A DNA stretch of 64,000 nt from Escherichia coli (lineage in GTDB: Bacteria > Pseudomonadota > Gammaproteobacteria > Enterobacterales > Enterobacteriaceae). The notes under the pieces were generated by a model, which was given only the letters and a program-made list of their open reading frames with translations, did no database searches and was not told the DNA's origin. The translations under genes and the position numbers were made by a program. Numbering within the stretch: position 1 is the stretch's first letter; every line of letters begins with the position of its first letter. Below, in pieces: positions 2,169 through 49,200 of the stretch. The stretch lies in the NCBI RefSeq assembly GCF_016026235.1, contig NZ_CP065613.1; one strand, given 5' to 3'.

Positions 2169-3599
2169 ATGATACATAAGTCAGCTACAGGTGTTATTGT
2201 TGCGTTAGCCGTAATCTGGGGTGGTGGCACATGGTACACAGGTACGCAAATTCAGCCTGGTGTCGAAAAGTTTATTAAAGATTTTAACGATGCTAAAAAG
2301 AAAGGTGAACATGCCTACGATATGACGTTAAGTTATAAAAATTTTGACAAAGGTTTTTTTAATTCTCGTTTTCAAATGCAAATGACATTCGATAACGGTG
2401 CACCCGATCTCAATATCAAGCCAGGCCAGAAAGTTGTATTTGATGTGGATGTTGAGCACGGTCCGTTGCCCATCACAATGTTAATGCATGGTAATGTCAT
2501 CCCAGCACTGGCAGCGGCAAAAGTGAACTTAGTGAATAATGAACTGACACAACCGCTATTTATCGCCGCGAAAAATAAATCGCCCGTGGAAGCGACATTG
2601 CGATTCGCGTTTGGTGGCTCATTCTCTACGACATTAGATGTTGCCCCTGCAGAGTATGGAAAGTTTTCTTTTGGTGAGGGCCAGTTTACTTTTAATGGTG
2701 ATGGTAGTTCATTGTCTAACCTGGATATTGAAGGCAAAGTCGAAGATATTGTTCTGCAATTATCACCAATGAACAAAGTAACGGCAAAAAGTTTTACCAT
2801 TGATTCTCTGGCGCGATTAGAAGAAAAGAAATTTCCGGTTGGTGAAAGCGAGTCGAAATTTAATCAGATTAACATTATCAATCACGGGGAAGACGTTGCC
2901 CAAATCGATGCTTTCGTTGCAAAAACCATGCTGGATCGCGTTAAAGACAAAGATTATATCAATGTCAATCTGACCTACGAACTTGATAAGTTAACAAAAG
3001 GGAATCAGCAACTCGGTAGTGGTGAGTGGTCATTGATTGCTGAATCTATTGATCCCTCAGCGGTGCGCCAATTTATCATCCAGTATAACATTGCAATGCA
3101 GAAGCAGCTTGCTGCACACCCTGAGTTAGCAAACGATGAAGTTGCTCTGCAAGAAGTGAATGCTGCATTGTTCAAAGAGTATTTACCGTTATTACAAAAA
3201 AGTGAGCCGACCATTAAACAACCGGTAAAATGGAAGAACGCACTCGGCGAACTAAATGCCAATCTGGATATCAGTATTGCCGACCCAGCCAAATCTTCAT
3301 CATCCACAAACAAAGATATTAAATCGCTCAATTTTGATGTGAAGTTACCGCTTAATGTCGTCACAGAAACCGCAAAACAGCTTAATTTATCTGAAGGAAT
3401 GGATGCGGAAAAAGCGCAAAAGCGGGCTGATAAACAAATCAGCGGGATGATGACCTTAGGTCAGATGTTTCAGTTAATCACGATTGACAACAATACCGCC
3501 TCGCTGCAACTGCGTTATACACCGGGTAAAGTTGTTTTTAACGGACAGGAGATGAGCGAAGAAGAATTTATGTCTCGTGCCGGACGTTTTGTTCATTAA
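2169..3599 (+). CDS. yihF: YihF, DUF945 family protein
   Basis: 476-aa ORF, N-terminal hydrophobic segment, synteny with K-12 yihF. Confidence 0.85.
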   Translation: MIHKSATGVIVALAVIWGGGTWYTGTQIQPGVEKFIKDFNDAKKKGEHAYDMTLSYKNFDKGFFNSRFQMQMTFDNGAPDLNIKPGQKVVFDVDVEHGPLPITMLMHGNVIPALAAAKVNLVNNELTQPLFIAAKNKSPVEATLRFAFGGSFSTTLDVAPAEYGKFSFGEGQFTFNGDGSSLSNLDIEGKVEDIVLQLSPMNKVTAKSFTIDSLARLEEKKFPVGESESKFNQINIINHGEDVAQIDAFVAKTMLDRVKDKDYINVNLTYELDKLTKGNQQLGSGEWSLIAESIDPSAVRQFIIQYNIAMQKQLAAHPELANDEVALQEVNAALFKEYLPLLQKSEPTIKQPVKWKNALGELNANLDISIADPAKSSSSTNKDIKSLNFDVKLPLNVVTETAKQLNLSEGMDAEKAQKRADKQISGMMTLGQMFQLITIDNNTASLQLRYTPGKVVFNGQEMSEEEFMSRAGRFVH

Positions 3600-7722: not shown

Positions 7723-7869
7723 GATTCGCCTGAACATGCCCTTTTTTCGTAAGTAAGCAACATAAGCTGTCACGTTTTGTGATGGCTATTAGAAATTCCT
7801 ATGCAACAACTGAAAAAAAATTACAAAAAGTGCTTTCTGAACTGAACAAAAAAGAGTAAAGTTAGTCGC

Positions 7870-7978
7870 GTAGGGTACAGAGGTAAGATGTTCTATCTTT
7901 CAGACCTTTTACTTCACGTAATCGGATTTGGCTGAATATTTTAGCCGCCCCAGTCAGTAATGACTGGGGCGTTTTTTA
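7870..7978 (+). ncRNA. spf: Spot 42 small RNA
   Basis: sequence GTAGGGTACAGAGGTAAGATGTTCTATCTTTCAGACC...CCCCAGTCAGTAATGACTGGGGCGTTTTTTATT matches remembered Spot 42 including intrinsic terminator; conserved position between polA and engB. Confidence 0.9.
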
Positions 7979-8103: not shown

Positions 8104-8736
8104 TTATTCGCCGTCCTGCGTTTCTTCTACAGGCTGCATCTCGCTAAACCAGGTATCCAGTTTCTGCCGCAGCTTGTCCACGCCTTGTTTCTTCAACGAA
8201 GAAAACGTTTCAACCTGCACATCACCGTTAAACGCCAGTACAGCTTCACGCACCATATTCAATTGCGCTTTACGTGCGCCGCTTGCCAGTTTGTCCGCTT
8301 TGGTCAGCAACACCAGCACGGCGATATTGCTGTCTACCGCCCACTCAATCATCTGCTGATCCAAATCTTTCAGCGGATGGCGAATATCCATTAGCACCAC
8401 CAGACCTTGCAGGCTCTGACGTTTTTCGAGGTACTCGCCGAGCGCGCGCTGCCATTTGCGCTTCATCTCTTCCGGGACTTCCGCATAACCGTACCCAGGC
8501 AAGTCAACCAGACGCTTGCCGTCAGCCACTTCAAACAGGTTGATAAGCTGGGTGCGCCCTGGGGTTTTTGAGGTACGAGCCAGGCTTTTCTGGTTAGTCA
8601 GCGTGTTCAGCGCGCTGGATTTACCTGCGTTGGAACGGCCTGCAAAAGCCACTTCAATTCCGGTATCGGAAGGTAGGTGGCGAATATCAGGCGCACTCAT
8701 CACAAAATGCGTCTGTTGATAATTCAAATTAGTCAA
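8104..8736 (-). CDS. engB: ribosome biogenesis GTPase EngB (YihA)
   Basis: 210-aa ORF with G1 motif GRSNAGKSS and other GTPase motifs. Confidence 0.95.
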
Positions 8737-9006
8737 AGCGGTCGTCTCCGTCAGTCAAAGCTTTGTGGCGATTATACCTGAACCATAATAAAAGGCGGAT
8801 TTTTCGGCGTGAGCGTTGTAAGTAAAAGCCATACGCTTTGTGAGACATTGCCGATAGTCTTTATGCGAAATAGCAGAGAAAATTCTGCGATGCATGTCAA
8901 ATAAGCTATATAAATCAGTGAATTGCTTTTATATAAAACTCTGAAAATGTGCAAATACTGATGGCGGTTGATTGTTTGTTTAAAGCAAAGGCGTAAAGTA
9001 GCACCC

Positions 9007-9248
9007 ATAGAGCGAGGACGCTAACAGGAACAATGACTCAGGATGAGGGTCAGGAGCGCCAGGAGGCGAAGACAGAGGATTGTCAGGAAGACAAACGTCC
9101 GGAGACGTAATTAAACGGAAATGGAATCAACACGGATTGTTCCGGCTAAAGGAAAAACAGGGTGTGTTGGCGGCCTGCAAGGATTGTAAGACCCGTTAAG
9201 GGTTATGAGTCAGGAAAAAAGGCGACAGAGTAATCTGTCGCCTTTTTT
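9007..9248 (+). ncRNA. csrC: CsrC small RNA (CsrA-sequestering)
   Basis: about 240 nt between engB and yihI with about 13 GGA motifs (CAGGA/AGGA in predicted loops) and terminal hairpin ggcgacagagtaatctgtcgcc plus T-run; matches known csrC location. Confidence 0.85.
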
Positions 9249-9317
9249 CTTTGCTTGCTTTCTGTTAGATTCCGCCGCAAATCTATACTGAATAAAACGG
9301 CTAAAAGACGAACCATT

Positions 9318-9827
9318 ATGAAACCATCATCTTCAAACTCACGCAGCAAAGGTCATGCAAAAGCGCGTCGAAAAACACGCGAGGAGCTGGATCAGGAAGC
9401 TCGTGATCGCAAGCGTCAGAAAAAACGTCGTGGTCATGCGCCGGGCAGCCGCGCAGCGGGCGGAAACACCACGTCAGGCAGCAAAGGCCAGAACGCACCA
9501 AAAGATCCACGTATTGGCAGTAAAACCCCTATTCCATTGGGCGTGACTGAAAAAGTCACCAAACAGCACAAACCGAAGAGTGAGAAACCTATGCTTTCAC
9601 CGCAGGCGGAGTTGGAATTACTGGAAACGGATGAGCGTCTGGATGCGCTGCTGGAACGTCTGGAAGCAGGCGAAACCCTGAGTGCCGAAGAGCAATCCTG
9701 GGTGGATGCTAAACTGGATCGTATTGATGAGTTGATGCAGAAACTCGGCCTCTCTTATGACGATGACGAAGAAGAGGAAGAAGACGAGAAGCAAGAAGAC
9801 ATGATGCGTCTGCTGCGGGGCAACTAA
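9318..9827 (+). CDS. yihI: Der GTPase-activating protein YihI
   Basis: ORF 9255..9827; start taken at [13 protein letters not shown]; highly basic N-terminus and acidic C-terminus. Confidence 0.9.
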
Positions 9828-14271: not shown

Positions 14272-14444
14272 AAAGCAGTCTCCTGAACAGGTTGCACCAT
14301 TTTAGTGCATTATAGCTTTTTACGGATAAAAAGCGCGAAGCATCAGAGAATTGACGGAGAAAAAAGCCCATGCAGAGATGGGCTGAAAGTTTCCACGGCA
14401 ACTAAATCCCGGCGTTGTTGCGCCGGGTAGTACAACTTCAACTA

Positions 14445-15854
14445 TTAGACGCTGTAGTACAGCTCAAACTCTACCGGATGCGGAGTCATACGCACGCGGT
14501 CATCTTCTTCGCGACGCAGAGCGATGTACGCATCGATCGCTTCATCCGTGAACACGCCACCGGCTTTCAGGAACTCGCGGTCCAGATCCAGCTCGTTCAG
14601 TGCTTCTTCCAGAGAGCCTGCAACTTGTGGGATCTCTTTCGCTTCTTCTGGCGGCAGGTCATACAGGTTTTTGTCCATGGCTTCGCCCGGATGGATCTTG
14701 TTCTTGATACCATCAAGACCGGCCATCAGCAGGGCAGCAAAGCACAGGTACGGGTTCGCCGCCGGATCCGGGAAACGTACTTCGATACGACGTGCTTTCG
14801 GAGAAGAAACCACCGGAATACGGATAGACGCAGAACGGTTGCGTGCAGAGTAAGCCAGCATTACCGGTGCTTCGTAGCCCGGGACCAGACGCTTATAAGA
14901 GTTGGTGGTCGGGTTTGCCAGGGCGTTAATCGCTTTAGCGTGTTTGATTACGCCGCCAATGTAGTACAGCGCCTGCTCAGACAGACCTGCGTATTTGTCG
15001 CCCGCGAACAGGTTAACGCCGTTTTTAGACAGCGACATGTGGCAGTGCATACCGGAGCCGTTATCACCGAACATCGGTTTTGGCATAAAGGTCGCAGTTT
15101 TACCGAAGCGGTGCGCTACGTTGTGCACAACATATTTGTAGATCTGAATTTCGTCAGCTTTTTTGGTCATGGTATTGAAGCGGGTAGCCACTTCGTTCTG
15201 ACCAGCAGTCGCTACTTCGTGGTGATGGGCTTCAACCACCAGACCCATCTGTTCCATCACCAGACACATTTCAGAACGAATATCCTGAGCCGAGTCTACC
15301 GGTGGAACCGGGAAGTAACCGCCTTTCACTGCCGGACGGTGACCTTTGTTACCACCTTCATATTGGGTGGAGGAGTTCCATGCGCCTTCGATATCGTCGA
15401 TAGCAACGTGGGAACCGGAGATAGATGATCCGAAACGGATGTCATCGAACAGGAAGAATTCAGGTTCTGGCCCGAACAGTACGGTGTCGGCAATGCCAGT
15501 GGAACGCAGGTAATCTTCGGCGCGCTTCGCAATAGAGCGCGGGTCACGGTCATAGCCTTGCAGGGTGCCAGGTTCAAGGATGTCGCAACGGATAATCAGG
15601 GTGGAGTCGGCGAAGAACGGGTCAATCACTGCGGTGGATGCGTCTGGCATCAGCACCATGTCGGATTCGTTAATGCCTTTCCAGCCGCCAATCGAGGAGC
15701 CGTCAAACATTTTGCCTTCTTCGAAGAATTCAGCATTCACCTGATGAGCAGGGATAGTGACGTGCTGTTCTTTACCTTTGGTATCGGTGAAGCGCAAATC
15801 AACAAACTTCACTTCGTGCTCGTTCAGCATCGTCAGTACGTGTTCAGCGGACAT
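14445..15854 (-). CDS. glnA: glutamine synthetase
   Basis: 469-aa ORF beginning [24 protein letters not shown]; adenylylation-site region; conserved operon glnALG. Confidence 0.98.
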
Positions 15855-16006: not shown

Positions 16007-16076
16007 CTGCACCATGATGTGAATGTTGCACCAATATAGTGCTTCAATGGAAACATTAAGCACCATATTGGTGCAA
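16007..16076. promoter_or_regulatory. NtrC enhancer binding sites upstream of glnA
   Basis: dyad motifs TGCACCA-N-TGGTGCA family: gctgcaccatgatgtg, tgcaccaatatagtgc, gcaccatattggtgca. Confidence 0.7.
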
Positions 16077-16226
16077 TGACCTTTGGATAACCCTTTTTAT
16101 GCTCCGTGAAAGCGATCACAAAGGGACTCTGCAATACTTGTTTGCGGAGGATGTTTGTGATCCTGTTTTGTAGTGCGATTAATCCGTGTACAATAACGCG
16201 CTATTTCTAATGCCTGAGGCAAAGTT

Positions 16227-18076: not shown

Positions 18077-18088
18077 GCCAGCGATGGC
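18077..18088. repeat. left copy of 12-bp target-site duplication GCCAGCGATGGC flanking IS4
   Basis: identical 12-mer at 19515..19526 immediately outside the other IS4 end. Confidence 0.85.
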
Positions 18089-19514
18089 TAATGCCGATCA
18101 GTTAAGGATCAGTTGACCGATCCAGTGGCTGTGTAAGAATCCGGAAACGCTCACTTGTTTCCGGATTTTTTTATGCACATTGGACAGGCTCTTGATCTGG
18201 TATCCCGTTACGATTCTCTGCGTAACCCACTGACTTCTCTGGGGGATTACCTCGACCCCGAACTCATCTCTCGTTGCCTTGCCGAATCAGGTACTGTAAC
18301 GCTACGCAAGCGCCGTCTTCCCCTCGAAATGATGGTCTGGTGTATTGTTGGCATGGCGCTTGAGCGTAAAGAACCTCTTCACCAGATTGTGAATCGCCTG
18401 GACATCATGCTGCCGGGCAATCGCCCCTTCGTTGCCCCCAGTGCCGTTATTCAGGCCCGCCAGCGCCTGGGAAGTGAGGCTGTCCGCCGCGTGTTCACGA
18501 AAACAGTGCAGCTCTGGCATAACGCCACGCCGCATCCGCACTGGTGCGGCCTGACCCTGCTGGCCATCGATGGTGTGTTCTGGCGCACACCGGATACACC
18601 AGAGAACGATGCAGCCTTCCCCCGCCAGACACATGCCGGGAACCCGGCGCTCTACCCGCAGGTCAAAATGGTCTGCCAGATGGAACTGACCAGCCATCTG
18701 CTGACGGCTGCAGCCTTCGGCACGATGAAGAACAGCGAAAATGAGCTTGCTGAGCAACTTATAGAACAAACCGGCGATAACACTCTGACGTTAATGGATA
18801 AAGGTTATTACTCACTGGGACTGTTAAATGCCTGGAGCCTGGCGGGAGAACACCGCCACTGGATGATACCTCTCAGAAAGGGAGCGCAATATGAAGAGCT
18901 CAGAAAACTGGGTAAAGGCGATCATCTGGTGAAGCTGAAAACCAGCCCGCAGGCACGAAAAAAGTGGCCGGGACTGGGAAATGAAGTGACAGCCCGCCTG
19001 CTGACCGTGACGCGCAAAGGAAAAGTCTGCCATCTGCTGACGTCGATGACGGACGCCATGCGCTTCCCCGGAGGAGAAATGGCGGATCTGTACAGTCATC
19101 GCTGGGAAATCGAACTGGGATACAGGGAGATAAAACAGACGATGCAACTGAGCAGGCTGACGCTGAGAAGTAAAAAGCCGGAGCTTGTGGAGCAAGAGCT
19201 GTGGGGTGTCTTACTGGCTTATAATCTGGTGAGATATCAGATGATTAAAATGGCGGAACATCTGAAAGGTTACTGGCCGAATCAACTGAGTTTCTCAGAA
19301 TCATGCGGAATGGTGATGAGAATGCTGATGACATTGCAGGGCGCTTCACCGGGACGTATACCGGAGCTGATGCGCGATTTTGCAAGTATGGGACAACTTG
19401 TGAAATTACCGACGAGAAGGGGAAGGGCCTTCCCGAGAGTGGTAAAGGAGAGGCCCTGGAAATACCCCACAGCCCCGAAAAAGAGCCAGTCAGTTGCTTA
19501 ACTGACTGGCATTA
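18089..19514 (+). mobile_element. insertion sequence IS4 (1426 bp) with 18-bp imperfect terminal inverted repeats
   Basis: terminal IRs TAATGCCGATCAGTTAAG (18089..18106) and CTTAACTGACTGGCATTA (19497..19514); single DDE transposase ORF; 12-bp direct repeats; length equals canonical IS4. Confidence 0.9.
18173..19501 (+). CDS. insG: IS4 transposase InsG
   Basis: ORF 18155..19501; start taken at [12 protein letters not shown]4-family DDE transposase. Confidence 0.85.
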
Positions 19515-19526
19515 GCCAGCGATGGC
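19515..19526. repeat. right copy of 12-bp target-site duplication GCCAGCGATGGC flanking IS4
   Basis: identical to 18077..18088; followed by GG and a T9 run that is the 3' half of the disrupted typA terminator. Confidence 0.85.
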
Positions 19527-28533: not shown

Positions 28534-28641
28534 AAATAATCTCCATAGAGTATAAAGCTAATATTTCATGCCATCCTGTTGTTACAGGTTTCATTAATTA
28601 AAGAATGTGGTGCTGGTATAAATTAAAACCCGCATAAGTGA

Positions 28642-29517
28642 TTATTTACTTTCTTCAGCCCGGCGGATTGCCGCCACTTTTTTACCAAATGCCAGTTGCA
28701 GTATAACTAACAAGGTAAAAGGAGGCAGAAGCGCGGCAGCAGCGGGAATTCCCAGCGCGCCTTTTATCAACATAGAACCGGAGGCAATCAGCAACAAAAA
28801 GACCATCACACGGAACACTTTGACTGAAATGCGTTTATGCACATATTGTCCAACCAGTGAACCGAGGATCATGGTGGGAATACAAAACAGCACCAGTTTA
28901 AAGATAGAAACAGTCAAAATTCCGCTGGTCGCCAGCCCGCCGATCACCGCGATGTTGTTTGCGGTGAAGAAAGCGTTCAGAGTGCCACGAAATGCCGCCG
29001 GGCCTAAGTTACGCAGCATACCGTAGATAACCATCGGCGGTCCGTTGGTTGAAAACGCTGCCCCTAACGCTCCTGCCACAGCGCCGATAGGTGCGGCGAT
29101 CCAGTTGCGGTCATAAATCGGCAGGCGTGGAATAAACATACTGTAAAAGGAGTACAGGATAAGGAATCCGCCTAAGCCCACTTTCATAAAATGGTCGGGT
29201 AAATATGACAGCGCATATAAACCGACGGGTATTCCCAGAAACGAGAAAATAATCAGTACCATTGCCGATCGCCAATCCGTTTCTTTACGTGACAGCCAGG
29301 TGGCGTACAAGGCGGTCGCGGTGCCGACAATCACCGAGAGCGGAGTTGCCATTTTTACGGGGAGCATTAACGTGACGAGCGGCATGGTGGTTAAACCACC
29401 GCCAAATCCCGCGCATATCCCCACAAAGGTATAAAGAAACATTAACGCGATAACGATACATACCACGTTTGTTTCCAGCATGACCCCATCCGGTGAAAAT
29501 AACGTAAAAAAGTCCAT
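28642..29517 (-). CDS. TauE/SafE-family (DUF81) membrane permease, putative sulfonate/sulfite-type anion exporter
   Basis: 291-aa polytopic ORF with glycine-rich motifs typical of TauE family (GFGGGLTT, GAVAGALGAAF); lies between yihQ and yihR. Confidence 0.7.
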   Translation of the reverse strand: MDFFTLFSPDGVMLETNVVCIVIALMFLYTFVGICAGFGGGLTTMPLVTLMLPVKMATPLSVIVGTATALYATWLSRKETDWRSAMVLIIFSFLGIPVGLYALSYLPDHFMKVGLGGFLILYSFYSMFIPRLPIYDRNWIAAPIGAVAGALGAAFSTNGPPMVIYGMLRNLGPAAFRGTLNAFFTANNIAVIGGLATSGILTVSIFKLVLFCIPTMILGSLVGQYVHKRISVKVFRVMVFLLLIASGSMLIKGALGIPAAAALLPPFTLLVILQLAFGKKVAAIRRAEESK

Positions 29518-29577
29518 GATATTCCCTGTTGTGTAAATACAACCCTAAACAATGATCTCGTTCTTTTCTTAATAAAA

Positions 29578-30480
29578 TTAATTGTGCTGCCCGTAAATAT
29601 TAAAAAACAGGCGGTGCGTTTTCCCTGGTTCCAGTAATAATAAGTCGAGACCTGAATTAAAGGCGTTAGGTGGGCAACTCATAGGTTCAACTGCCAGTCC
29701 CTGACGCTGTAATTTTTCGCCGCTATAAATCTGCACCCAGGGTTGATCGGAACAAAGGCTTACCGAAAGCGCCTGTTGTGGATGGGTAATGGTTATTTCC
29801 CACAGATCATTAGCGGTTTTAAAGGTGTGGTCGATTTTTGTCGCGGCTATTTTTTTCGCCTGCGTGAAATTTAAATCCAGCTCATCAACGTGGTGAAGCG
29901 TTGTCGGATTAGCGTGCTCATCGACGGCATAAACCTGGTTTGCCGGAAGCTGGAACAGATATTCATCAACAGATGTTAAGTTGCAGGTTAAATAAGGATG
30001 AATACCCACACCATAGGGTGCGGTCACAGTACCAATATTCTGACTTGCGATCTCAACGGAAAGACCCGTGCGTGCATTGAGCGAATAAACAACCTGCGAA
30101 GCCAGCATAAACGGATAGCCGTAACTGGGCGGCAGAAAAGCTGTCAGGGTAACGCTGGTGGCGGTTAATTCGCTGATTTGCCAGTCACGCCAGGCGAGCA
30201 GCCCATGAATAGCGGCTTTTGAACCATGTTCATTAATGGGTAACTGATATTCCTGCCCCTGATAGCGATAACAGCCGTTGGCGATCCGGTTCGGCCACGG
30301 AATAAGGACTTTGCCCAGATGTGCCAGCGGCATCTCTTCGGGTTTATGCGGAATAACTAAATGACAGCCCTGAAAGGTTAATTCAGCCAGACCTGCACCG
30401 ACGGTCACAATGGTCGCGTGATAATCCCCCGCGGCAAGTGAAACGGTCTGTCCACTGCAATGCATGTTGGTGATTTGCAT
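29578..30480 (-). CDS. yihR: aldose-1-epimerase family protein YihR (sulfoquinovose mutarotase)
   Basis: 300-aa ORF, galactose-mutarotase-like; synteny. Confidence 0.85.
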   Translation of the reverse strand: MQITNMHCSGQTVSLAAGDYHATIVTVGAGLAELTFQGCHLVIPHKPEEMPLAHLGKVLIPWPNRIANGCYRYQGQEYQLPINEHGSKAAIHGLLAWRDWQISELTATSVTLTAFLPPSYGYPFMLASQVVYSLNARTGLSVEIASQNIGTVTAPYGVGIHPYLTCNLTSVDEYLFQLPANQVYAVDEHANPTTLHHVDELDLNFTQAKKIAATKIDHTFKTANDLWEITITHPQQALSVSLCSDQPWVQIYSGEKLQRQGLAVEPMSCPPNAFNSGLDLLLLEPGKTHRLFFNIYGQHN

Positions 30481-46270: not shown

Positions 46271-49200
46271 TTACACCTTTTCCACATTCACAAGGAAGGA
46301 CTTAAACTCCGGCGTCTGCGTGTTCGCATCACCAACGAATGGCGTTAACGTATTGGCAATAAAGCCTTTTTTAGCTACGCCTTCATAACCCCAGTGAATC
46401 GGAATACCGATGGTATCGATATCTTTGCCGTTCGCTTTCAGCGTGCGAATACGTTTGGTCACCACCGCTTTGGCCTTGATATAGCCACGGTTGGAGGAGA
46501 CTTTCACGGTATCGCCCTGGGCAATGCCAAGTTTATTCGCCAGCGACTCCCCGATTTCCACAAACTGCTCTGGCTGCAAAATCGCGTTCAACAGCGCGTG
46601 TTTGGTCCAGTAGTGGAAGTGCTCGGTCAGACGATAGGTGGTTCCGACATACGGGAACTTATCGGCTTTACCCAATGCTTCGGCGTCGTCTTTAAAGATA
46701 CGTGCAGCCGGGTTCGAGATAACGTTTGGATGCAGCGGGTTAGTTCCCAGCGGCGTTTCAAACGGCTCGTAGTGTTCCGGGAACGGACCTTCCGCCATCT
46801 TATCGAGGGCAAACAGACGCCCCATGCCTTCCTGCTGCATGATAAACGGCCCGACGCCGCTGCCCGGAGGCGCTGCGCTGTAGTCCGGAATATCCCAGCC
46901 GGTCCACTTAGTGCCGTCCCATTTCAGCAACTGACGCTTCGGATCCCACGGGTTACCCTGCGGATCTGCGGAGGCGCGGTTATACAGAATGCGGCGGTTA
47001 AGCGGCCATGCCCATGCCCAGCCCAGCGTGTTACCGAGGCCAGACGGATCGGCGTTATCACGACGCGCCATCTGGTTGCCTTCCGGCGTCCAGCTACCGG
47101 CGAAAATCCAGCAACCACAGGAAGTTGTACCGTCATCGCGCAGTTGGGCGAACGAGCTAAGTTGTTGGCCTTTCTTGACGATAACCGCACCGGTTGCCGG
47201 ATCGGTAATATCGGCCAGCGCCTTACCGTTACTCTCCATCGCCACTTCTTCTGAAGATGGCTCATGCGGAATGGCGTAGTTCCAGGTCATGTTCAGCACC
47301 TGGTCCGGGTTCGCGCCACCCTGTTCGGCATACATCTTGCGCAAGCGCAGGAAGATACCGGAGAGGATCTCGCCGTCAGTCAGCGCAATCCCCGGGGCGT
47401 CCGCACCTTTCCAGTGCCACTGTAACCAGCGACCTGAGTTAACGATAGAACCGTTCTCTTCCGCGAAGCAGGTCGATGGCAGACGGAACACTTCGGTCTG
47501 GATCTTCGACGAGTCAACTTCGTTCAGCTCACCGTGGTTCTGCCAGAAGTTAGAGGTTTCAGTGTTCAGCGGGTCGATGGTGACGAGGAACTTCAGTTTC
47601 GACAGACAACCGATCACTTTGTTTTTGTTCGGGAATGAGGCAACAGGGTTAAAGCCCTGGCAGATATAGCCATTGACCTTGCCCTCTTTCATCATCTCGA
47701 AGTATTGCAGGACGTCGTAGCCTTTATCCCACTTCGGCAACCAGTCAAAGCCCCAGCTATTTTCCGCCGTCGCTTTATCACCAAAGAAGGCCTTCATCAT
47801 AGAGACGAAGAATTTCGGGTAGTTGCCCCAGTAGTTTACCTGGCCTTCCAGCAGCGGTTTTGGCGTGTTGGCGGTAAGGTAGGTTTGCAGATCGGTCTGC
47901 TTCTCGCTTGGCAGCGTCATGTAACCTGGCAGGCTCTGCGACAGCAGCCCCAGGTCCGTCAGCCCCTGAATATTGGAGTGACCGCGCAGGGCGTTAACGC
48001 CGCCGCCAGCCATCCCCATGTTACCGAGCAGCAGCTGGATCATCGCCATCGTACGAATGTTTTGCGCACCAACGGAGTGTTGCGTCCAGCCGAGGGCATA
48101 CAGGAACGAGGCAGTTTTATCGTGAGCACTGGTTTCTGCGATGTATTCGCAGACTTTCAGGAACGCGTCTTTTGGCGTACCACAGATGTTTTCAACCACA
48201 TCTGGCGTGTAGCGGGAAACGTGCTGTTTCAGCAAGTTCCACACGCAGCGCGGATGTTGCAGCGTGGTATCGCGTTTGGCGAAGCCGTTTTCGTCCAGTT
48301 CATAAGTCCAGGAGGATTTATCGTACTTGCGTTTTTCCGCGTCGTAGCCGGTGAACAGGCCATCTTCAAAGCCGTAATCCTCACGCACGATCAGGCTGGC
48401 GTTGGTATAGGCTTCGGTGTATTCGCGGTTGAATTTTTCATTGTTCAGCAGGTACAGCAATACGCCTGACAGGAAAGCAATGTCAGTACCGGAACGAATA
48501 GGGGCATAGTAGTCAGCCACCGCCGCCGTACGCGTAAAGCGAGGATCGATCACAATCAGCTTCGCGCCATTGTGAATTTTGGCTTCCATCGCCCAGCGGA
48601 ACCCGACCGGGTGAGCTTCAGCGGCGTTACCGCCCATCACCACGACGAGGTTGGCGTTCTTGATGTCGACCCAGTGGTTGGTCATCGCACCGCGACCAAA
48701 TGTTGGAGCAAGACTTGCTACCGTTGGTCCGTGTCAGACACGCGCCTGGTTGTCGACCGCGAGCATACCCAGCGCGCGGGAGAATTTTTGCGTTAAATAG
48801 CCGGTTTCGTTACTCGACGCGGAAGCACACAGCATCCCGGTGGAGAGCCAGCGGTTAACAGTCACGCCTTCGGCGTTTTGCGCAATGTAGTTAGCATCGC
48901 GGTCTTCTTTCATCAGTTTGGCGATGCGATCAAACGCCTCTTCCCAACTGATTTGCTGCCATTTATCAGAACCTGGCGCACGGTATTCCGGAAACTTCAG
49001 ACGGCTTTCGGAGTGGATGAAATCCACCAGGCCAGCGCCTTTCGGACAAAGTGCACCGCGGTTGACCGGGTGATCCGGATCGCCTTCGATATGGAAGATA
49101 GATGCTTTGGCGTTTTTTGCTCCGTCACCGAGGCTGTACATCAACAGCCCACAGCCTACGGAACAATAGGTGCAGGTATTACGGGTTTCGCGGGTGCGCA

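Follow-up and report, generated by a model that had tools for sequence, protein, structure and literature searches.

The segment 9007..9252 (+) of the window, that is, of the whole 64-kb stretch of Escherichia coli DNA that was analyzed, is, with hardly any doubt, the csrC gene, which encodes a CsrA-sequestering small RNA (sRNA) of E. coli. The locus is already known and ordinary, and nothing new was found in it. The identification is carried by a full-length match to the CsrC family of Rfam and by complete identity with the csrC gene of E. coli K-12, and a first-pass annotation, made from the letters alone, had named the segment correctly.

Identity and boundaries of the csrC locus

In the Rfam scan of the whole window, the CsrC model (RF00084) covers 9007..9260 (+) over its entire length (model positions 1-255 of 255), with a score of 278.7 bits compared to a gathering score of 61 (E = 6.4e-88), which places the segment within this family. 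The covariance model and an alignment with K-12 csrC had been proposed in the first-pass annotation as the two checks of the identification; the former yielded the match far above the gathering score described here, and in the latter the yihA–yihI intergenic region (8737..9317) proved identical to that of K-12 MG1655 at 581 of 581 positions, including all 246 positions of csrC itself. The ncRNA gene csrC of K-12 (b4457, 4051036..4051281) maps exactly onto 9007..9252 of the window and shares with the present copy not only the sequence but also the strand, the neighbors, the terminator, the 14 GGA motifs and the UvrY site, without any difference within the locus. The rest of the window belongs to a non-K-12 E. 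coli, with 95-99% identity to MG1655 and several insertions. The 246-nt sequence was found, at an identity of at least 95%, in 5424 of the 5426 complete E. coli genomes.

The lack of a Rfam match and a terminator in the other orientation had been named beforehand as observations that would speak against CsrC; the match is present, and the terminator and the GGA array share a strand. The boundaries originally proposed, 9007-9248, are exact at the start, whereas the annotated 3' end of the K-12 gene equals 9252. The description of the segment as a 240-nt intergenic region has to be corrected, given that the gap between yihA and yihI actually measures 581 nt, with the sRNA gene occupying 246 nt of it. 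The placement between engB and yihI was right: yihA is engB, and the arrangement observed here, in which yihA is divergent from csrC whereas yihI follows on the same strand (Table 1), agrees with the published orientation rule for csrC, namely yihA leftward, csrC rightward and yihI rightward (PMC1488887).

Table 1. Features of the csrC locus and its neighborhood (window coordinates)
Feature	Position	Strand	Basis or remark
yihA (engB), divergent upstream neighbor	8104..8736	-	210-aa ORF; K-12 annotation, same position
Upstream half-site TGTAAG	8817..8822	+	16 bp before the inverted repeat; read from sequence
UvrY-P binding site, 18-nt imperfect inverted repeat TGTGAGACATTGCCGATA	8839..8856	+	-168 to -151 from +1
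Probable csrC -10 hexamer TAAAGT	8994..8999	+	Ends 7 nt before the annotated +1 at 9007; read from sequence
csrC gene (CsrC sRNA, 246 nt)	9007..9252	+	Rfam RF00084 and identity to K-12 b4457
Array of 14 GGA (10 AGGA), candidate CsrA-binding sites	9016..9215	+	Motif count
Five short GGA-presenting hairpins	9011..9022, 9034..9052, 9057..9068, 9071..9084, 9095..9108	+	Rfam consensus structure, reproduced by MFE fold
Long interrupted hairpin	9128..9169	+	Rfam consensus structure
Small GGA hairpin	9177..9187	+	Rfam consensus structure
3'-half hairpin	9191..9203	+	Rfam consensus structure
csrC intrinsic (Rho-independent) terminator	9214..9249	+	Rfam helix: 16-bp stem, GUAA loop, U-rich tail
yihI (Der GTPase-activating protein), downstream neighbor	9318..9827	+	K-12 annotation mapped

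The GGA array

The dense array of GGA triplets that had first drawn attention to the segment was borne out, whereas its size, initially given as about 13, is exactly 14 on the plus strand of 9007..9248, compared to only two GGA on the opposite strand. The remark that many of these triplets occur in CAGGA or AGGA contexts also holds, with 10 AGGA and, among the 14 triplets, six CAGGA. The plus strand of the 64-kb window contains on average 3.15 GGA per 242 nt; the 14 per 242 nt in csrC are the maximum for either strand and are attained nowhere else in the window. AGGA occurs 10 times in csrC, while 242 nt of the window contain 0.62 on average and the next-best stretch has four. When the segment was shuffled with preservation of its dinucleotides, the mean was 8.9 GGA and 59 of 5000 shuffles reached 14 (p ~0.012), a value that is only moderate because such shuffles retain the GG and GA dinucleotides of the segment itself. 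Given this shuffle mean, much of the GGA excess is carried by the purine-rich composition of 9007..9248 (A 80, G 77, T 44, C 41). The non-random part of the signal consists in the placement of the triplets in loops and in their conservation across genera, and the window-wide comparison and the cross-genus conservation are stronger tests of the array than shuffling of the segment.

According to the Rfam consensus structure, six of the GGA triplets are located in hairpin loops (starting at 9016, 9041, 9062, 9077, 9101, and 9181), five in single-stranded linkers (9027, 9053, 9086, 9117, and 9123) and the other three (9134, 9151, and 9213) take part in base pairs, either partly or completely; thus, 11 of the 14 are unpaired in the structure of the family, and the minimum free energy (MFE) fold concurs for the 5' hairpins. 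CsrA recognizes a GGA that is presented by a short hairpin in its loop, and SELEX has yielded the consensus RUACARGGAUGU (PMC7652899), and one paper attributes 14 CsrA-binding sites to CsrC (PMC8151843). Judging from the sequence, the GGA layout of csrC would be the arrangement that is recognized by CsrA.

RNA fold and terminator

The csrC RNA is predicted to fold with an MFE of -86 kcal/mol (z = -6.9), and none of 200 shuffled sequences was as stable. The strong intrinsic terminator noticed at the end of the segment in the first-pass annotation is real and lies on the plus strand, the strand of the GGA array; a terminator scan delineated it as 9212..9251 (+), with 18 pairs (7 of them G-C), a 4-nt loop and a T-rich tail, in addition to the helix of the Rfam model (Table 1). 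The locus displays several of the features that Kulkarni et al. 2006 (PMC1488887) used to recognize RNAs of this type: it is intergenic with a high AGGA/ARGGA density (10 AGGA in 246 nt), its GGA triplets occur repeatedly in loops or otherwise unpaired (6 loops and 5 linkers), and a Rho-independent terminator is present on the same strand.

Promoter and UvrY site

The inverted repeat TGTGAGACATTGCCGATA has a single match in the window, with 0 mismatches. This sequence is the DNase-I-footprinted site of phosphorylated UvrY at E. coli csrC, and a TGTAAG half-site upstream of the csrC repeat has been described as well (PMC4682653). A conserved UvrY/GacA site upstream of the gene is a further one of the marks of sequestering sRNAs in Kulkarni et al. 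2006 (PMC1488887), and the locus contains it in the form of the exact repeat together with the TGTAAG half-site. Among the 48 homologous loci in which the upstream region was examined, the core TGTGAGA is found at -153 to -168 in 29 and TGTAAG is found at -175 to -190 in most; one or the other of these cores is present near -155 to -190 in most of the 48.

A consensus promoter scan found no sigma-70-like promoter in 8700..9400. Given this result, the -10/-35 assignment for csrC is an inferred one, and the promoter was assigned solely from the conserved TAAAGT and the annotated +1; the motif (G)TAAAGT occurs at a constant distance from the start of the RNA in nearly all of the 48 homologous loci. 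The lack of a match to the sigma-70 consensus fits an activator-dependent csrC promoter.

Homologous loci and conservation of structure and context

Homologs were sought in one genome per bacterial or archaeal species with a pattern of 23 specified bases taken from the conserved core, resulting in 51 loci. All of these belong to Enterobacteriaceae and are distributed over at least 13 genera, namely Escherichia, Salmonella, Citrobacter, Enterobacter, Klebsiella, Raoultella, Leclercia, Lelliottia, Pseudescherichia, Pseudocitrobacter, Superficieibacter, Silvania, and Huaxiibacter. In every locus with a sufficiently long flank, yihA is located upstream and is divergent, and yihI is found downstream on the same strand in 50 of the 51 loci, the remaining one being truncated; the start codon of yihI lies ~60-100 nt past the csrC terminator.

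Each of the 51 homologs has 13-16 GGA in the RNA itself, compared to 0-2 on the complementary strand. The sites at 9016, 9027, 9041, 9101, 9151, and 9181, which the search pattern left free, are retained in 47-51 of the 51 homologs, whereas helices 3 and 4 and three of the GGA sites are invariant because the pattern fixed them. When the Rfam structure was imposed on a MAFFT alignment of the 51 sequences, 85.7% of the positions expected to pair did so, compared to 39-50% when the partners were slid by 1-3 columns. Compensatory changes are seen in helix 1 (G-C in 30 sequences and A-U in 21), in helix 5 (U-A in 30 and C-G in 20) and at one pair of helix 6 (A-U in 21 and C-G in 19); helix 9 is 98% paired, and the terminator helix is 98.8% paired and nearly invariant. 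Given that the MAFFT alignment is not structure-aware and that registers shift in Enterobacter-like sequences, helices 2 and 6 appear just 61-64% paired.

These observations bear on whether the segment is an independent gene at all. Only 65 nt separate it from yihI, which follows on the same strand, and its dinucleotide composition already predicts about nine GGA, so that it could in principle belong to yihI as a purine-rich 5' leader or regulatory region, or be a spacer that is rich in GGA by chance. We consider this highly improbable and rule it out on three grounds: a strong, nearly invariant terminator stands between the segment and yihI; the segment is preceded by a conserved -10 element and a UvrY site of its own; and the CsrC covariance model aligns with it over the entire model length. 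Further evidence against a leader or chance spacer comes from the retention of the GGA positions outside the search pattern in nearly all homologs and from the literature, in which CsrC has been shown to be a discrete RNA (PMC4682653, PMC7652899).

Relationship to other CsrA-sequestering RNAs

CsrB and CsrC belong to the same Rfam clan (CL00106) and follow the same design of GGA hairpins (PMC7652899), which raises the question of whether the segment could be another member of the Csr/Rsm clan, such as CsrB or a paralog resembling RsmB, RsmY or RsmZ. The odds of this are vanishingly small. In each region, cmscan retains the best member of the clan, and here it retained CsrC at full length; the flanking genes are yihA and yihI rather than yqcC and syd (PMC1488887); the segment comprises 246 nt with 14 GGA compared to the 22 GGA of CsrB (PMC7652899); and it is identical to csrC (b4457) of K-12. 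The location beside syd/yqcC and the ~22 GGA that characterize CsrB (RF00018) are not found at this locus, and CsrB was rejected on context, length and identity to csrC.

The CsrC identified here resembles CsrB (RF00018, clan CL00106) in that multiple hairpins with GGA in their loops sequester CsrA, in activation by BarA-UvrY and in decay that involves CsrD and RNase E (PMC7652899, PMC4682653). CsrB differs from CsrC in its greater length, its 22 GGA and its position adjoining syd/yqcC; furthermore, the UvrY inverted repeat of csrB is near-perfect (TGTGAGAGATCTCTTACA) whereas that of csrC is imperfect, and csrB but not csrC needs IHF for full activation (PMC4682653). Further analogs are RsmX, RsmY, and RsmZ of Pseudomonas and RsmB of Pectobacterium, which likewise sequester the protein through looped GGA motifs; their regulator is GacA, the ortholog of UvrY (PMC1488887, PMC7652899). 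These RNAs are found in other genomic contexts and cannot be aligned with CsrC in sequence. To our knowledge, the species that carry them have no CsrD-dependent turnover.

Annotation of the locus in public records

In many E. coli genomes, RefSeq/PGAP places a CDS annotated as 'hypothetical protein' inside csrC, at the equivalent of 9033..9199 (+) of the window, which would imply that the segment encodes a small protein. Such a reading has next to no chance of being correct. PGAP flags its own CDS as a pseudogene (frameshifted; internal stop), the translation contains two internal stops, which led us to reject the coding interpretation, and the ORF list includes no plus strand ORF of at least 40 aa within csrC. 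Furthermore, the conservation of csrC tracks RNA pairing and not codons.

The spurious pseudogene (9033..9199 (+) in the window; 2797..2963 and 3034..3200 in the homologous loci L001 and L055, respectively) recurs in every RefSeq/PGAP record listed. The expectation that protein-centric annotation would miss the gene was confirmed, given that RefSeq/PGAP records of other E. coli genomes show no csrC ncRNA at this position. CsrC has been characterized since 2003 and has a Rfam family of its own, and the present copy equals that of K-12 base for base, so that the locus is of little value for discovery. Its practical import is limited to annotation, in that RefSeq/PGAP omits csrC and carries a spurious pseudogene instead. 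Because automated records mislabel the locus, RNA-aware annotation, such as a Rfam scan, is needed for csrC.

Other features of the window

Several other RNA elements were detected. Spot 42 sRNA (spf) is located at 7860..7978 (+) (RF00021, 122.8 bits), between polA and yihA as in K-12; a UvrY/SirA ChIP-exo signal near spf has been reported (PMC4682653). ES222 sRNA was found at full length at 16038..16145 (+), between glnA and bipA/typA (Rfam, 133 bits), and two tandem copies of naRNA4 (CssrE; nucleoid-associated, REP-derived) are present at 59429..59499 and 59521..59591 (+), with Rfam scores of ~77 bits each. A SECIS_3 element (RF01989, 84.3 bits) at 48681..48739 (-) falls inside fdoG according to the offset of the K-12 map. 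The fdoG gene encodes the alpha-subunit of formate dehydrogenase O, in which a SECIS is expected for the selenocysteine codon. Downstream of glnA, the stretch 14384..14433, which corresponds to the K-12 locus 14423-14584, is ~110 nt shorter than in MG1655. In K-12, the GlnZ sRNA is located in this stretch 3' of glnA, and the glnZ region is strain-variable.

The insertions relative to K-12, both the IS elements and the one with the 614-aa ORF, are not related to csrC. An IS4-family element forms an insertion of ~1.4 kb (18088..19515) between bipA/typA and yihL; its ORF (18155..19501 (+)) contains the Pfam domains Nterm_IS4 and DDE_Tnp_1, and this insertion includes the second-densest GGA stretch of the plus strand, with 12 per 242 nt, in coding sequence. 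In the sulfoquinovose cluster, an insertion of ~1 kb (28551..29587) separates yihQ from yihR; at this position, the close relative FDAARGOS_943 has a gene for a TauE/SafE sulfite exporter. Between fabY and yiiE, an insertion of ~2 kb contains an ORF of 614 aa (38853..40697 (+)) that is absent from K-12 and had no match in Pfam, NCBIfam, PADLOC or PDB sequences. FDAARGOS_943 has between the same two genes 'hypothetical protein' fragments flanking IS1, which may correspond to the 614-aa ORF. Finally, an IS3-family insertion sequence at 42117..43550 (-), between yiiF and fdhE, is absent from this site in K-12 and includes two ORFs, 42977..43507 (HTH) and 42150..42872 (rve integrase core).

Function of CsrC and its predicted mode of action

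What is observed at the locus is a discrete, terminated, structured RNA gene with conserved unpaired GGA triplets, promoter elements and genomic context. In K-12, transcription of csrC is activated by BarA-UvrY, and the RNA captures numerous CsrA dimers, which are thereby kept away from mRNAs; the decay of CsrC depends on CsrD, RNase E, and PNPase and is sensitive to the carbon source via EIIA-Glc, and CsrB levels increase to compensate when CsrC is lost (PMC7652899, PMC4682653).

An additional role of the locus can be envisaged, in which read-through of the csrC terminator supplies part of the transcription of yihI and thereby links the BarA-UvrY/Csr system with the Der GTPase-activating protein and, through it, with ribosome assembly. 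This idea is prompted by the invariant linkage of the divergent yihA with csrC and the co-directional yihI, and by the short distance between the terminator and yihI (~60-100 nt). We regard it as unlikely; the terminator, which is strong and nearly invariant, speaks against substantial read-through into yihI.

We infer that the mechanism known from K-12 probably holds in the present strain as well. Transcription of csrC would start at its own promoter, activated by phosphorylated UvrY bound ~160 bp upstream, and would stop at its own intrinsic terminator, yielding a non-coding RNA of 246 nt. The predicted transcript would present 14 GGA, most of them in short hairpin loops or unpaired linkers, to which CsrA dimers are likely to bind with high affinity, as expected from the literature. 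Together with CsrB, CsrC would then titrate CsrA off its mRNA targets and so relieve the control that CsrA exerts over genes for carbon storage, biofilm formation and motility.
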